From positions 77,278-141,277 of the forward strand of contig JASFYR010000008.1 in assembly GCA_045047115.1 (NCBI GenBank): a stretch of DNA of 64,000 nucleotides, given 5' to 3'. This stretch comes from Sulfurospirillum sp. (GTDB lineage: Bacteria; Campylobacterota; Campylobacteria; Campylobacterales; Sulfurospirillaceae). A program made the position numbers. Positions 22,001 through 37,000 of the stretch are shown here, piece by piece; within the stretch, counting starts at the first letter, position 1, and each line of letters opens with the position of its first letter.

Positions 22001-25000
22001 TTGAATTATATGACAGATACAACTTCAGATACAACCTCTTTGCAACACTAAATTATGCCTTTGTAGATACAAATATAAGAGAAAATTCAAGTGATCCAAG
22101 TATCGTTGGTAGAGAAATTCCCGGAGTCTCAAAACACAATGTTAAACTCTCTTTGGGCTATAAGCCGATGTATGGAGTATCTCTGGCTTTAACACACATT
22201 TATAAATCAAAAGCTTATGCTATGAGTGATTTTGATGGTAGTTTTGGTAAAATGGATGCTTACAACTCTACAGATCTTATGGCTAGCTACAAGTATAAAA
22301 AGTTTGATTTTTTTGTGAAAATAAACAATCTTTTTGACAGAAAAAATGCTCTTTTTGCCGATAATGGTTTTAGCATAGGCGTTTATCCGGTCAATTATGA
22401 GAGAAATTTTATGATAGGAGCTAATGCCAAGTTTTGAGAACTCTGCATATAAAACCATATCTTTGTTATAAGTTTTTAAATTCTCTTTTTTTGGGGCTTG
22501 GTGTGGGGAGTATATTTGTCTTGTATACTCCACTGCAACCCTCCGTATTTTCTCTCGGTGGAATTTTTCTAGCTGTTTCTATGTTGGTTTTGGCAAAATT
22601 TTACAGTAAGATTATGAATATAGAGGCATTTTTTTATATTACACTTCTTGTTGAAGTGGTGGTTTTGCTCTTTGTCTCGTTTTTTTTGCTCTTTAACTAC
22701 TCTTATGTAACAGCACTTTTAGTCTATTTGGGCTATCAAGTTACTTTTATATTTGGAAGTTATCTGGTGAGAATGGAGACTATCGCTTTGAAAAAAACGA
22801 TCCTTATCTCTGCAGCAGATGTTGTGAAGCAAAAGGGTTATCTGACCGGTTTGGTGTTTTCATATCTCTTTTATAAGATTTTGGACTATATAGGCGTAAG
22901 TGATAAGCAGATACAGGTATATGATCTGCACATCGGACTTTTGCTTTTAGAGATAGTAATCATATTTACTATTTTTCGCTCTTTTAAAAGCTATTTGTGG
23001 GTATGAAAATCATAAAAATAGTTCTGCAATCTTGTTTGTCAGTTAAGTCTGTTCGTCCTTTTTTTGAGTAGATAGTATATGATACCAATGATAGATATAA
23101 AAGAGAAGAGTATGAGTAAAATAATATGCAGATACTCTTTTATCAAAATTTGATTTTCACCTATAAAATAGCCCAAAAGTGTGAGTATTGTCACCCATAA
23201 GCCAGCTCCTAATGCAGTGTAAAAAACGAAAAATTTTAGATTCATTCTACCCAATCCTGCGGGTAGCGAGATGTATTGTCTAACCCCGGGGATTAGTCTT
23301 CCGATAAAGGTGGAGATATTACCGTATTTCTTGAAAAATTGTTCTATTTTATCTAATTTTTGTTCGCTCATAAAGAAGTATTTTCCATATTTTACAATTA
23401 AAGCACGACCAAGTCTAAGTGCTAGGTAGTAATTAAAAAGTGCCCCTAAAACACCACCAAATACCCCTGAAAATATAGCTATATAGATATCCATATCGCC
23501 TTTAGATGCAAGATAACCAGCAGGAATCATAACAACCTCACTTGGAAAAGGGAAAAAAGAGCTTTCTAAAAACATCATAATAATAATGCCTAAATAGCCC
23601 AAGTCGCTTACCATATTTACGATAGTGTTTATAACTTGATTTAACATTTAAATTACTCGTTAACTAAAAATTTTTCTGAAATTCTACCATAAAGTCAAAA
23701 AAGTATATTTCAATTTTTGTCGCACTGGTTTTTAGCTGTATTTAGAGTTGAGGTGCTTATGGTTGGAACAATCAATACATAAAAGAATCTTTTTATATAC
23801 TGGCCTTTTTATCATTAGACTTCTTGTACAAGTCTTTTAAAAAAGGCTGTACGAAAAGCCTATTGTACAAAACAAGACCAAATATGTCAATAGATGATTT
23901 ATAACAGCAGGGGGTTTATCCCCTGCTTGTTGAAGGATGGTTATAAATTGTTATAGATTTTTAAGTGTTCGCTCAAAGTCTCCGGCTATCTCTTCGCCTG
24001 CTTTATCTATGTCGCTGGTTGTGACATCTATCCAGTGGATAAAAAGTGTATCATCCCTTATATCCATAGTGATAGTTCCGGGAGTCAAGGTTATACTGTT
24101 TGCAAGCATCAGTTTTTTATAGTTCTCTTTAAGATCTGTTTTTATCGCAACGATACCTGGGTTTATAGGGAGTTTTGGGTCGATTACTCTTTTTGCCACA
24201 TCCCAGTTTGCCAAAATCAAAGCTTTTAAAAATGTTACCAGATATATGATATATGCAATTGGTCTAAATCTAAACTTATCACTACTTTCATAATTTTTTA
24301 CATAGAGCAGGGCGATAATGAAAGAGACAACAAAGCCGGTGATTAGCTCTTGAGAACTAAAGCTCATGGTGAGTCCCATCCAAATTAAAAATAAAAACAC
24401 TGTCCAAAATATAAGTCTCATTTTACCTCCTCTGCGATATTTTTTTGGTTTATAGGCATATACAAAAAATTGTCCGCACAAGAGTCAGCATGTATGCAGA
24501 TATTGTCCAGTTTTAGCGAACCAGGAGGGCATACATCTGTGCAAAGTGAACACCAGCAACATCTTCCATAGTCGATTCTTGGGATACAGCCGCTTGTATT
24601 TTTTATATTGTACTCTTTATCAGGATGTATCATATCTATCGCTTCATTCATACAAACCTCTTGACAGTTTGCACAACCGATGCAGGCTTCAAGGTCGTTT
24701 ATATGAAAACCTCTGTAGCCTTTTGGTATATCTTTTTTTACTGCAGGATAAGTTACGGTCTTAGGATGTTCAAACAGAGTTCCTATCGCACTAAGTGGCG
24801 ATAAAACACCTTTTATATCTATAGCCATTTTATCTCCTTTATCTCTCTATCTCAGGTGGACATATGCCAAGTGAGTTCATAGTCATCGCTACATCTGCAA
24901 GTTGTGAATCCACAAGCAGTTTTTCAAGCAAAGTATATGCATGTATCAGTGAAGGGCCCCGTACTTGCATTCTTCTTATTTTTTCACTTCCGTCACCTGC

Positions 25001-34000: not shown

Positions 34001-37000
34001 AATGTTTTGATAGACTTCTGTGAGATTTCCATCAGCAAGTGAACTGTCTATCTCCAAAAGATTGTTATAAGCGGTAAATAAAAATCTTTTTATCCTAAAA
34101 TAATCCAATCTCTCGTCACCTGATTGAAGTTCATAATCTTTGTATTTACTGACAGTATCCCTTAAAGAAGAGAAAAAATTGTTCATTGTGGTATTTATAA
34201 AGTTTTTTGGAACAGTTTTTATAGAGTAAAAATCCGGGTCAATTTTTTTATCAATTGACTCTATATTCTCATCTGGCAAGCTTGTTTGGAGTATAGTCTT
34301 TTTTGCATCTTGTATATCTATGGGATTGTTGGTTTTAGTATCGGCTTTGGACTGCTTCTTGATACTTTTGGCAATCCCGTCTTCCAAGACAAAAGAGACC
34401 TTTAGTCCAATCTGCGGTAAGTTGTCTAAATCATCCCAAGATTCTATATCAAATCTATACTTCTGTTTTTCATTTGAAAGTATCAAACCAGTGCCATTAT
34501 CAGTATTGTAAAATATAATAGTTCCATTCATATAAACACCTTTGACATAAGCATAGCATATTATTTTTTAATATCCTATATGATAGAATTCTACCTATGA
34601 TTAATGAAACTTTTTTACTCGATATCGCAGATTTTATCGGAATAGCATCCTTTGCACTTAGTGGTTTTTATATCGCAACCAAGGATAGACTGGATATATT
34701 GGGTGTATTTATAGCCTCTTTTTTGACGGCACTCGGAGGCGGTATCATAAGAGACATTATAGTAAACCGTGCACCTTTTACATTTTTGCACTCTTATCCC
34801 TCTTTGATTGTTGTTTGCGTGTTGGTTTTAAGTGTTTTGTTGGGACTGCATAAAAGCGATAGGATTTTAAAGAGCAAGCTTTTGATTCTTAGTGACTCTG
34901 TCGGTCTTATCTCTTTTTCTATCTCAGGTTCCCTAGTGGCTTTACAGGCTGGATTTAGTCTCTTTGGGGTCAGTTTGCTGGCGGTTATCACAGCAACGGG
35001 AGGAGGAGTTATGAGAGATATTCTTCTAAATAAAATACCACTTCTTTTGGTAAGTGAACTCTATGGCACCATATCCATAATGGTGGCTGTGATTATTTTT
35101 ATTTTAAGTATCTGTGGTGGTGTAAATTTTTTCACACTGGGCATAGTGTTTGTTGTGGCTCTTGCATTTAGGCTTTTGGCATATTATAAAAAATGGCATT
35201 TACCACATTTGAGCGATTAAAGTTAATTTGCTATAATTGTAACAAAAGGAAAAAGATATGTATGAAGAAATGGACAAAGATTTTGTATTAAATACTTATG
35301 CGAGAAATTGTGTAAATTTTAAGCAGGGTATCAATGCAACACTCTATGATGACAAAGGCAAGGATTATATAGATTTTACAAGTGGCATAGGTGTGAGTAG
35401 TGTGGGGCACGGCAACGCAAGACTTGCAAATGTCATATGTGAGCAGGCAAAAAATCTGATACACACTTCAAATCTATATCTAATCGAACCACAGGCAAAA
35501 CTTGCCAAAAGACTTGTTGAGCTAAGCGGTTTTGATATGGCAGTATTTTTTGGGAACTCGGGTGCTGAGGCAAACGAGGGCGCTATAAAGATAGCCAGAA
35601 AATATGGTGAGAAAAACTTTGATAACAAAAAATATAAAATTATCACATTGGAAAATTCATTTCATGGCAGAACCATCACAACAGTAAAAGCAACAGGGCA
35701 AAAAAGCTTTCACAAATCGGATTTTAGTCCATACCCGGATGGTTTTTCATATGATAAAAATATAAAAAAGATATATGAGTCTATAGATGATGAGACTGTG
35801 GCTGTTATGATTGAATTGGTTCAAGGAGAGGGCGGAGTCCAGCCTTTTGCAAAGAGTGAAATCAAAGAATTAGCAGATTATCTAAAAAAGAGAGGTCTCT
35901 TGCTTATCGTAGATGAGGTGCAGACAGGAGTTTATCGAAGCGGTGAGTTTTTGGCGACAAATCTGTACGATATAGAGCCTGATATCATCACTTTGGCAAA
36001 AGGACTTGCAGGCGGTGTGCCTATCGGAGCTGTGATGACAAAACATAAAGATATATTTGAGCCCGGAGATCACGGAAGTACATTTGGAGGAAATTTTTTA
36101 AGTACAAGAGCTGGATTGGAAGTTATAAGTATATTGGACAGCTATAAAAACAGCGGTTTGCTTGATGAGACATTTTTGTATTTTGAAGAAGAGTTATCAA
36201 AAATTTGTAAAAGTTTTCCAAACTTTTTTACAGAGCATGTAGGTCTGGGACTGATGAGAGGTTTTAGATGCAAAGATGCCGATACCCTCTCTAAAATCAT
36301 AGATGCTTGTTTCAATGAAGGACTTTTAGTTTTAAAAGCCGGTAAAAATACACTCAGAATGTTGCCCCCTGTTACGATAAGTAAAGATGAGATAAATGAA
36401 GGATTTAAAAGGATGACAAGTGCGCTTGATTGGCTGTCTTAGTTTAGGTATTGTTTCAGTTTTTACTATGGTGCAAGCTGGAAATGTAACGCTTTTGTCA
36501 AAATTAAAACAAGATATACTTGCAAATGAAAAAAAGACAAATGAATTAAACAGTGACAATTTAGAAAAGAGCTGGATAAACAGTGTAGTAGGCTCTTTTT
36601 CATATAGCAATAGCGACTCAAGTGGTGAAAGAAGAGAGTCAAATACCCTTTCTGTGTCTATAAATCAGCCGATTTTTAAGAGTGGAGGTATATATTATGC
36701 TATAAAATATGCTGATGCAAACAGGGGTTTTTTAAGAATCAGTACCAAGCTTAATGAACAGACAGAGATAAAGACTGTGCTCTCTTCACTCTATAGCCTA
36801 AAAAAACTAGATTTGCAGATTCAAAAGCAAAAGTATATGATTGACAATGCCAATATAGATATAATCAGAAGAAAAGAGCAATATATAAGCGGTTTTTTGG
36901 ATAGCAGTTATCTAAATCAGGCTATACTTTCGCAGAGTACTCTTCAGAGGTCACTATTGGATATGAAATCAAGCAGGCTTGAGCTTCTAAGAACACTAAA

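Follow-up and report, generated by a model that had tools for sequence, protein, structure and literature searches.

A complete MBS/Mbx-type operon of a derived bacterial subclade in the genome of a Sulfurospirillum species

Results

Organisation of the operon

The window, i.e. the whole stretch of 64,000 nucleotides of Sulfurospirillum sp. contig JASFYR010000008.1 that was analysed, harbours 13 co-directional genes on the minus strand running from 33263 to 23951, with all 12 junctions either overlapping or leaving a gap of no more than 10 bases (Table 1). In line with an earlier note on this DNA, Pfam assigns these genes to the Mrp-type members MrpF, MrpG, MbhD, MnhB, MrpC-like and MNHE, to two Proton_antipo_M proteins of 482 and 590 aa, to NuoH-, NuoB-, NuoC- and NuoD-like subunits and to a 4Fe-4S dicluster protein. 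All 13 subunit types of the MBS/Mbx set are present, comprising the full Mrp set as well as M, J, K, L and N. The notion that the locus reproduces the archaeal operon holds for this subunit set but not for the gene order, which is rotated such that the MrpE-like mbsA stands last instead of first. Likewise, the extent of 23951 to 34531 formerly given for the feature is appropriate up to 33263, while 33365-34531 is a separate upstream ORF of 388 aa to which profile search assigns no family. It adjoins the operon in 2 of 83 loci, many of which end before that point, and genome G075 has a different gene in its place. Having no family, no usable Atlas match and no synteny, it was rejected as a fourteenth part.

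Table 1. Genes of the operon, listed in the direction of transcription.
Subunit	Description	Position	Strand	Basis
MbsB	MrpF-like, first gene	32985..33263	-	PF04066, E 1.6e-18
MbsC	MrpG-like	32650..32985	-	PF03334; NF009314 above cut-off
MbsD	MbhD/DUF4040	32405..32653	-	PF13244; alignment
MbsE	MbhE + MnhB domains	31680..32408	-	PF04039, weak PF20501
MbsG	MrpC/NuoK-like	31310..31687	-	PF00420; Glu47 conserved
MbsH	antiporter-like pump, 482 aa	29860..31308	-	E132, K213, K244, K382; PDB 6u8y_H
MbsH'	second antiporter-like pump, 590 aa	28091..29863	-	E98, K178, K209, H299, K362; PDB 6u8y_X
MbsM	NuoH-like anchor	27198..28094	-	PDB 6u8y_M
MbsJ	proximal [4Fe-4S] cluster subunit	26552..27205	-	PDB 6u8y_J; predicted ligands C57, C122, C152
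MbsK	NuoC-like	25944..26585	-	PF00329
MbsL	NuoD-like, predicted nickel-free	24839..25951	-	PDB 6u8y_L; motif register
MbsN	short 2x[4Fe-4S] entry subunit, 136 aa	24418..24828	-	PRK13984 partial match; alignment
MbsA	MrpE-like, last gene	23951..24421	-	PF01899

The true start of MbsB is probably situated about 10 codons downstream of the called one, close relatives measuring 82-92 aa. For MbsA, the ATG at 24421 is preceded by GGAGG, while the longest ORF begins at 24481. Clustering of 82 loci revealed no accessory gene recurring next to operons with a short N. A scan for promoters and terminators remained at chance level (43 vs 41.2 and 8 vs 7.0), and a plasmid search gave no match.

Assignment to the MBS/Mbx family

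Each of the six subunits searched against the PDB finds its best match in Pyrococcus furiosus MBS (6U8Y). MbsL scores 301 bits against 6u8y_L, compared to 209 for 2fug_4, 135 for 6cfw_L and 88 for 7z0s_E, which reproduces the values reported before. The corresponding best and runner-up scores amount to 213 and 125 bits for MbsJ (6u8y_J), 231 and 142 for MbsH (6u8y_H), 228 and 138 for MbsH' (6u8y_X) and 150 and 83 for MbsM (6u8y_M). In the L tree, the MBS/Mbx clade of 37 rows which includes the present L is supported by 100/100. The marks of complex I are absent, as the NuoB-like subunit lacks tandem cysteines, the NuoD-like subunit lacks H38 and Y87, and the pumps are not three in number; also absent is the mark of group 4 [NiFe] hydrogenases, namely two CxxC motifs in L. 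Structure prediction followed by Foldseek captured the shared fold alone, with TM-scores of about 0.9 to complex I chains, and did not single out MBS, 6u8y_L ranking 31st among these chains. Prediction of L in complex with J and the cluster scored 0.84 versus 0.79 for the control. We take the operon to encode a full MBS/Mbx complex of bacterial type which belongs to a derived subclade; the family is the one proposed in the earlier note.

Descent of the subclade and origin of subunit N

Within the L tree the present complex is nested among bacterial Mbx as a short derived tip, and the AU test rejects a joint clade with archaeal MBS (p-AU 0.0006). Descent from Thermococcales, as implied by the former label “Thermococcales type”, is thereby rejected, and the short N is closest to bacterial NuoI-GltD fusions. 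The subclade comprises Campylobacterota, Chromatiaceae and two Spirochaetales and is characterised by mbsA in last position and by a short N devoid of the GltD flavoprotein domain. The nearest sampled relatives, whose L is 57-67% identical, belong to Bacteroidota, Ignavibacteriota, Calditrichota and an Acidobacterium; they, too, carry Cys65 in L and a glycine in J (see below). Sulfurospirillum sp. 1612 (P0009) encodes an L which is 85% identical to the present one. The named relatives are sulfur bacteria.

The best NCBIfam match of MbsN covers positions 6-131 of the 611 positions of PRK13984, and its longer homologues are fusions of 567-637 aa. MbsN resembles the N-terminus of these NuoI-GltD fusions most closely and ends, with no GltD domain, at 136 aa. 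No close copy of a detached GltD partner was found in the genome, the best proteins sharing 28-38% identity with 29 fused tails that show 51-97% identity to one another. The three GltD-like genes of the genome were rejected as such a partner, since each has its own neighbours and none is close. The genome encodes two small ferredoxins, while a search for flavodoxin gave no match.

Cysteines and active site of subunit L

The CRIC and CPPEIER motifs described for L are indeed present. Aligned with a group 4 hydrogenase harbouring an intact CxxC, Cys65 of L falls on the Glu preceding Arg, Cys68 on ligand 1 and Glu71 on ligand 2. Accordingly, L keeps two of the four NiFe ligand positions, Cys68 (ligand 1) and Cys364 (ligand 3), as does MbsL, while in the census positions 2 and 4 are occupied by E71 and E367. 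All eight hydrogenase representatives possess cysteines at 68, 71, 364 and 367 and none at 65. From the aligned sequences we conclude that C68 and C364 are vestigial NiFe ligands and that C65 is an extra cysteine specific to the clade. The earlier count of three of the four NiFe cysteines thus has to be reduced to two. The idea of L as a living intermediate between MBH and MBS drew on its three cysteines distributed over two motifs and on the resemblance of CRIC to CxxC. With the third cysteine off any ligand position and L forming a short tip nested within bacterial Mbx, motif register and tree rule it out, and we consider it extremely improbable.

Cys65 occurs in 98 of 98 bacterial rows of the L census and in none of 29 archaeal-type rows. 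It is retained even where C68 is lost in 8 of 15 rows and C364 in 15 of 15, which means that the constraint on it exceeds that on the genuine remnants of nickel binding. Its gain accompanies the loss of the non-ligating cysteine of J. In Salmonella Hyd-5 the equivalent residue, Glu73, is buried near the NiFe site and the proximal cluster, its side chain being a second-shell group and no cluster ligand (PMC3940037). Most likely, Cys65 is a second-shell residue tuning the proximal cluster and not a remnant of nickel binding. L also lacks quinone-binding residues, the equivalents of Nqo4 H38 and Y87 being T20 and V69.

Conserved residues of the remaining subunits

In MbsJ the region around the cluster aligns with archaeal-type J free of gaps and shows the short loop of MBS. 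Three ligand cysteines and a shortened loop agree with MBS as described in PMC7684303. The N-terminal motif of P. furiosus MbsJ has two cysteines, one of them non-ligating (PMC7684303). The single cysteine previously noted in this motif is confirmed; the likeness to MbsJ therefore applies to the three cluster cysteines and not to the motif as a whole, where Gly54 replaces C25. By this ligand pattern, the proximal cluster of J would possess an open iron.

Residue numbers for the pumps were transferred by way of locus L135, the L of which reaches 820 bits against 6u8y_L. MbsH' retains all five charged residues; MbsH has three of five identical, with Lys for E219 and Gln at H330. MbsM keeps three of five acids (D196, E203, E211), the equivalents of E104 and E193 being changed. 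Contacts of the P. furiosus dimer are missing, as MbsD lacks the Trp-rich tail (W90/W91/W94) and MbsH' lacks F566. On the Na+ path of subunits B, C and E, P83 of MbsC has no clear alignment.

Host metabolism and distribution

The host is a sulfur-oxidising bacterium and, judging from its genome, an autotroph using the reductive TCA (rTCA) cycle. It encodes four PsrA/PhsA-like molybdoenzymes, each with NF012032 as best match, below the cut-off of that model. SoxZ is found in all 11 carriers of the complex versus 25 of 61 genomes of the family, and ACL in 9 of 11 versus 22 of 61 (carriers G782 and G793 have no ACL match), although these carriers are kin from two genera and hence not independent. 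In the sister genus of the same family the complex was not found in 28 out of 28 genomes; taken with the SoxZ-positive carriers, this points towards bacteria that oxidise sulfur rather than reduce it. Counts of 4/401 and 16/401 were obtained for Campylobacterota genomes with the complex, and most rTCA Campylobacterota are without it.

Discussion

Possible function and alternatives

The sequence evidence favours, with a probability of about 0.5, an ion-pumping ferredoxin:polysulfide oxidoreductase. Gene content, family, residues and tree position come from the present sequences; donor, acceptor, direction and ion are here transferred from homologous systems. Reduced ferredoxin, formed by the oxidation of pyruvate or 2-oxoglutarate or else through Nfn, would donate electrons, which may travel over both clusters of N and reach J at its proximal cluster with three cysteines. 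There, the open iron might split polysulfide at an internal S-S bond within a chamber formed by L, J and M, and the energy released could drive proton pumping by H and H', with the Mrp module possibly swapping pumped protons for Na+. Such a complex would constitute a cytoplasmic sulfur sink of higher yield beside periplasmic Psr, in use when oxygen and nitrate are absent. The earlier proposal of ferredoxin-linked, ion-pumping polysulfide chemistry beside Psr thus stands as the leading guess, the four PsrA/PhsA-like enzymes being present. It is consistent with the six best matches to 6U8Y, the ligands and loop of J, the largely kept pump residues, the lack of cysteines at ligand positions 2 and 4, the missing quinone residues and an N without flavin. 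Also in its favour are the two ferredoxins together with the lack of a flavodoxin match, the missing close copy of a detached GltD partner, the sulfur-bacterial relatives, the 4.36-fold induction of T. maritima mbxA on S0 (PMC9431562) and the ability of Sulfurospirillum sp. 1612 to use pyruvate, lactate or malate for growth with S0 (PMC11406935). Growth on S0, however, needs no MBS, because four PsrA/PhsA-like enzymes are present, and for an rTCA autotroph it is expensive to use up reduced ferredoxin on sulfur. Further arguments against it are the distribution of the complex, with its lean towards sulfur oxidisers, active-site surroundings unlike those of archaeal MBS, with C65 gained in L and C25 missing from J, two acids of M and one His of H which are not kept at the aligned position, and the rank of 6u8y_L among predicted-structure matches. 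We found no assay of any bacterial Mbx in the literature consulted.

Operation in reverse, with ion-motive force pushing electrons from sulfide or short polysulfide to ferredoxin for the rTCA cycle, appears rather unlikely to us. The carriers' Sox and ACL genes would fit it, as would the Mrp-Mbx of the Riftia symbiont, which is co-expressed with rTCA genes, its direction being stated as unknown (PMC11636981). On assumed potentials the gap is 34-46 kJ/mol per 2 electrons (published figure: 41 kJ) compared to 12-17 kJ per pumped charge, so that 2-4 charges could reverse the reaction. Activity in this direction is, however, not described for MBS in the parts of PMC7684303 consulted. The co-occurrence with Sox and ACL rests on two genera including carriers without an ACL match, and the absence of the complex from most rTCA Campylobacterota implies that autotrophy does not need it. 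In purple sulfur bacteria reversal might feed other low-potential needs, which we regard as similarly doubtful. No greater likelihood attaches to the general form of this reading, in which a bacterial Mbx stripped of its NAD(P)H module would, in purple sulfur bacteria as well as in Campylobacterota that oxidise sulfur, act as a reverse or bidirectional ion-driven sulfide/polysulfide:ferredoxin oxidoreductase and offer a short way to reduced ferredoxin past the quinone pool, with Cys65 retuning the catalytic cluster. A paper on sulfur disproportionation (PMC12998232) makes no mention of the complex.

Slightly less doubtful, albeit still improbable, is another acceptor, be it a protein or small-molecule persulfide or disulfide or a low-potential quinone, with Cys65 participating or closing the open iron site. 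The strict conservation of Cys65 where C68 and C364 are lost and the buried position of Hyd-5 Glu73 would agree with this; moreover, in the ancestral GltD-fused form, electron transfer from NADPH to polysulfide would yield 9-12 kJ/mol (assumed potentials), too little for pumping two ions. Yet the residues for a quinone head group are missing, among the 82 clustered loci the operon has no recurrent sulfur-carrier gene as a neighbour, and the Glu73 side chain does not ligate the cluster.

Significance

As far as the literature consulted goes, MBS has been characterised solely in hyperthermophilic archaea. The subclade places it in cultured bacteria which are not hyperthermophiles, namely Sulfurospirillum sp. 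1612 (L homologue) and DSM strains of Thiocystis, Chromatium, Allochromatium and Thiorhodococcus. Databases label the complex of this subclade as complex I. Contrary to the earlier note, its occurrence outside hyperthermophiles is not new as a genomic finding, since mbx-like operons have been described in Magnetococcus and other proteobacteria (PMC4758237) and Mrp-Mbx in the Riftia symbiont (PMC11636981). Bacterial Mbx of Thermotoga is likewise published (PMC4758237); our literature search found no publication on the short-N subclade itself. Questions raised are whether sulfur respiration through an iron-sulfur route exists in bacteria alongside molybdenum Psr, whether MBS may run backwards as a ferredoxin supply, and what role the most conserved bacterial cysteine (Cys65) plays. 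To the hydrogenase-to-complex I series the present complex adds nothing.

Comparison with known systems

With P. furiosus MBS (6U8Y; PMC7684303) the complex shares 13 subunit types, two antiporter-like pumps, a three-cysteine proximal cluster, two vestigial NiFe cysteines, the lack of quinone residues and an N without flavin domain. It differs by mbsA in last position, an N of bacterial fusion descent, a separate branch in the L tree, the gain of Cys65 in L and loss of C25 in J, and the missing contacts of the D tail and of F566 in H'; in addition, its host possesses Psr-like enzymes, Sox and the rTCA cycle. Bacterial mbx-like operons with the NuoI-GltD fusion show A-to-N gene order and an N of about 600 aa that includes a flavoprotein domain of the NAD(P)H type, neither of which is found in the present subclade. 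The systems of Thermotoga (T. maritima MBX: PMC9431562), Magnetococcus and the Riftia symbiont were compared on the basis of published descriptions. MBH (6CFW) and complex I, of which the genome has two separate operons, share fold and module plan with the present complex, which in contrast to them has neither the NiFe ligand set nor tandem cysteines in its NuoB-like subunit nor H38 and Y87.

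Operon organisation and descent

The mbs/mbx-type operon comprises thirteen co-directional genes, as stated in the earlier note. Gene order along the operon is mbsB, C, D, E, G, H, H', M, J, K, L, N and A, and at each of the 12 junctions neighbouring genes overlap or are separated by no more than 10 bases. Its GC content (0.35-0.40 by bins) lies inside the window's own range. Of the span formerly assigned to the complex, 23951..34531, only the thirteen-gene operon stands, as the adjoining 388-aa ORF belongs to no family and is not syntenic.

A PDB sequence search carried out with six of the 13 subunits returned Pyrococcus furiosus MBS as the top match for all six: 301 bits for the NuoD-like L (runner-up 209), which reproduces the score reported before, 213 for the NuoB-like J (125), 228 and 231 for the pumps H' (138) and H (142), 150 for the NuoH-like M (83) and 64.5 for the ferredoxin-like entry subunit N (42). 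Foldseek with L does not single out MBS, 6u8y_L being found at rank 31 (TM 0.92/0.91).

Positions of features in the window and elsewhere in the genome
Feature	Location	Strand	Observation
MBS operon	window 33263 to 23951	minus	13 genes
388-aa ORF	window 33365-34531		no family or Atlas match; 75-86% identity in two close relatives
Low-GC region	window 56000-64000		GC 0.28-0.32; PIN-like gene, ATPase, sugar-nucleotide genes
Two tandem Hyf/Ehr-like clusters (L018)	C14:108500-123000		nickel-free group 4 relatives; no CxxC motif at the end of either large subunit (457 and 509 aa)
Second complex I	C25:15000-26400		fused NuoCD and NuoEF, two convergent halves; epsilon-type operon on C14 as well
Two probable NfnAB transhydrogenases	C30:9567-11837; C18:16121-18402		from sequence and neighbours, without dedicated HMM; one copy fused (756 aa), adjoining an ETF-like gene
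Formate dehydrogenase-like gene (L028)	C21:39838-42681		one in-frame TGA, consistent with selenocysteine

A GTDB scan for homologous loci, of which the best 80 among the matches listed were considered, reveals two architectures, defined post hoc from gene orders and independently supported by the tree of L. Among these matches, the group with a short N, devoid of a GltD domain, occurs in Campylobacterota, Chromatiaceae and two Spirochaetales; N is unfused in 43 of its 50 loci (six lack N, one is cut), and mbsA lies downstream of L in all 41 loci showing both. The group with fused N, equally among the matches listed, comprises Bacteroidota, Ignavibacteriota, Calditrichota and an Acidobacterium, with an N-GltD fusion in 29/32 loci and mbsA first in 19/19. 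The short-N rows form one clade in the L tree (99 SH-aLRT in one tree, 100/98 in another), to which the fused forms are successive outgroups (90/89, 94/89, not starred) within a bacterial clade (100/99). Since the short-N clade nests among fused outgroups, its GltD domain was likely lost, a direction for which support is moderate. Grouping of the short-N clade with archaeal MBS was rejected (p-AU 0.0006, LG+G4, the group having been named after the tree was seen). In Chromatium weissei and Allochromatium warmingii (L071, L077, L154, L156) mbsN and mbsA do not lie with the rest of the operon but elsewhere in the genome; those of C. weissei follow the nuoN-like gene. A single Spirochaetales genome harbours both short-N and GltD-fused Mbx (L078, L158).

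Among 401 high-quality genomes from the phylum, L was detected in 4; among 401 from the order, J was detected in 16. Within the family, L occurs in 10 of 61 genomes, namely the studied one, 8 of 13 others of the same genus and 1 of 14 of a further genus (g3), while it was found in none of the 28 genomes of another (g2). Mbx-type L is encoded in 85 of 201 Chromatiaceae genomes, 15 of which belong to the short-N subclade.

The third cysteine of L

Alignment of L with a group 4 hydrogenase whose motifs are intact (P0204) places Cys65 at the Glu before Arg, Cys68 at ligand 1 and Glu71 at ligand 2. Because Cys65 thus aligns with a Glu, and every MBS-type row covering positions 71 and 367 has an acidic residue at them, L retains two of the four NiFe ligands, as does MbsL (C85, C385). 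The proposal of three NiFe cysteines therefore fails, only Cys68 and Cys364 remaining; likewise, L is no evolutionary intermediate between MBH hydrogenase and MBS, given the register of Cys65 and the nesting of L in the bacterial clade.

In a single alignment, restricted to rows with 300 or more aligned residues, all 51 short-N rows (one duplicate, L015 = L051) and all 32 fused-type rows among the matches listed have Cys at position 65, as do 15/15 rows from a second clade of Chromatiaceae. The residue is Leu in 29/29 archaeal-type rows, which stem from metagenome contigs picked by the MbsL motif, one of them checked against 6U8Y (6 of 35 such loci fell short of the length threshold). Of 8 hydrogenases chosen out of 150 representatives for their CxxC motifs, 6 have Glu there. 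Cys65 is not universal, as some deeper MBS-like representatives carry Pro (P0183, P0184, P0219, P0223) or, in P0237, Cys. In the second Chromatiaceae Mbx clade (L178-L192) one or both vestigial NiFe cysteines are gone (Cys364 to Tyr in 15/15, Cys68 to Ala in 8/15), Cys65 being kept. Position 65 presumably corresponds to Glu73 of Salmonella Hyd-5. According to PMC3940037, Glu73 is a buried residue, close to the NiFe site and also to the proximal cluster.

Proposed function

By homology, ferredoxin would supply electrons to N, polysulfide would be cleaved at the J cluster by its open iron, and H together with H' would pump ions; to this scheme as a whole we assign a probability of about one half. 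The host genome carries genes for citrate lyase and Sox, for four PsrA/PhsA-like enzymes, for NapA and an uptake hydrogenase, and for two small ferredoxins; a search for flavodoxin gave no match in it. Counting the Hyf/Ehr-like pair, this one 2.1-Mb genome contains five NuoD-family genes.

The energy gap, estimated at 34-46 kJ/mol versus 12-17 kJ per charge, is near balance, so that the complex might run in reverse. We consider such reversal quite unlikely; it is kept in play by the carriers being sulfur oxidisers and by the co-expression of the complex with rTCA genes in the Riftia symbiont, as described in PMC11636981. SoxZ is encoded by 11/11 and citrate lyase by 9/11 of the family's carriers, which are kin and not independent. 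A different acceptor, with a part played by Cys65, seems unlikely.

Comparison with known systems

Bacterial mbx-like operons have already been published; PMC4758237 describes them as having the GltD fusion. By title, abstract start and term counts, among the papers listed (40 of 961 in one search) and in a coverage mostly outside subscription journals, we found no publication on an MBS-type complex in Campylobacterota or Chromatiaceae. The available main texts naming Sulfurospirillum sp. 1612 do not contain 'mbs', 'mbx', 'sulfane' or 'mrp', nor does the available part of one supplement contain 'mbx' or 'mbs'; the accessible portion of the PMC7684303 supplements mentions neither 'Thermotoga' nor 'bacteri'. 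For the short-N bacterial variant, whose function is predicted, no description was found in the papers covered.

The locus is real and intact; it belongs to the MBS/Mbx family and represents a derived bacterial form of it. Cys28, Cys93 and Cys123 of P. furiosus MbsJ correspond to Cys57, Cys122 and Cys152 of J, whereas the position of Cys25, non-ligating and dispensable in P. furiosus according to PMC7684303, is occupied by Gly54. This position is Gly in 40/40 and 28/28 bacterial loci with the motif among the matches listed (10 and 4 loci being without it) and Cys in 27/27 archaeal-type loci with the motif (8 without). The pump residues are conserved in H' (5/5) and partly in H (3/5 identical) and M (3/5). 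The dimer contacts of P. furiosus MBS are absent. In L, Thr and Val occupy the positions of His38 and Tyr87 of complex I.
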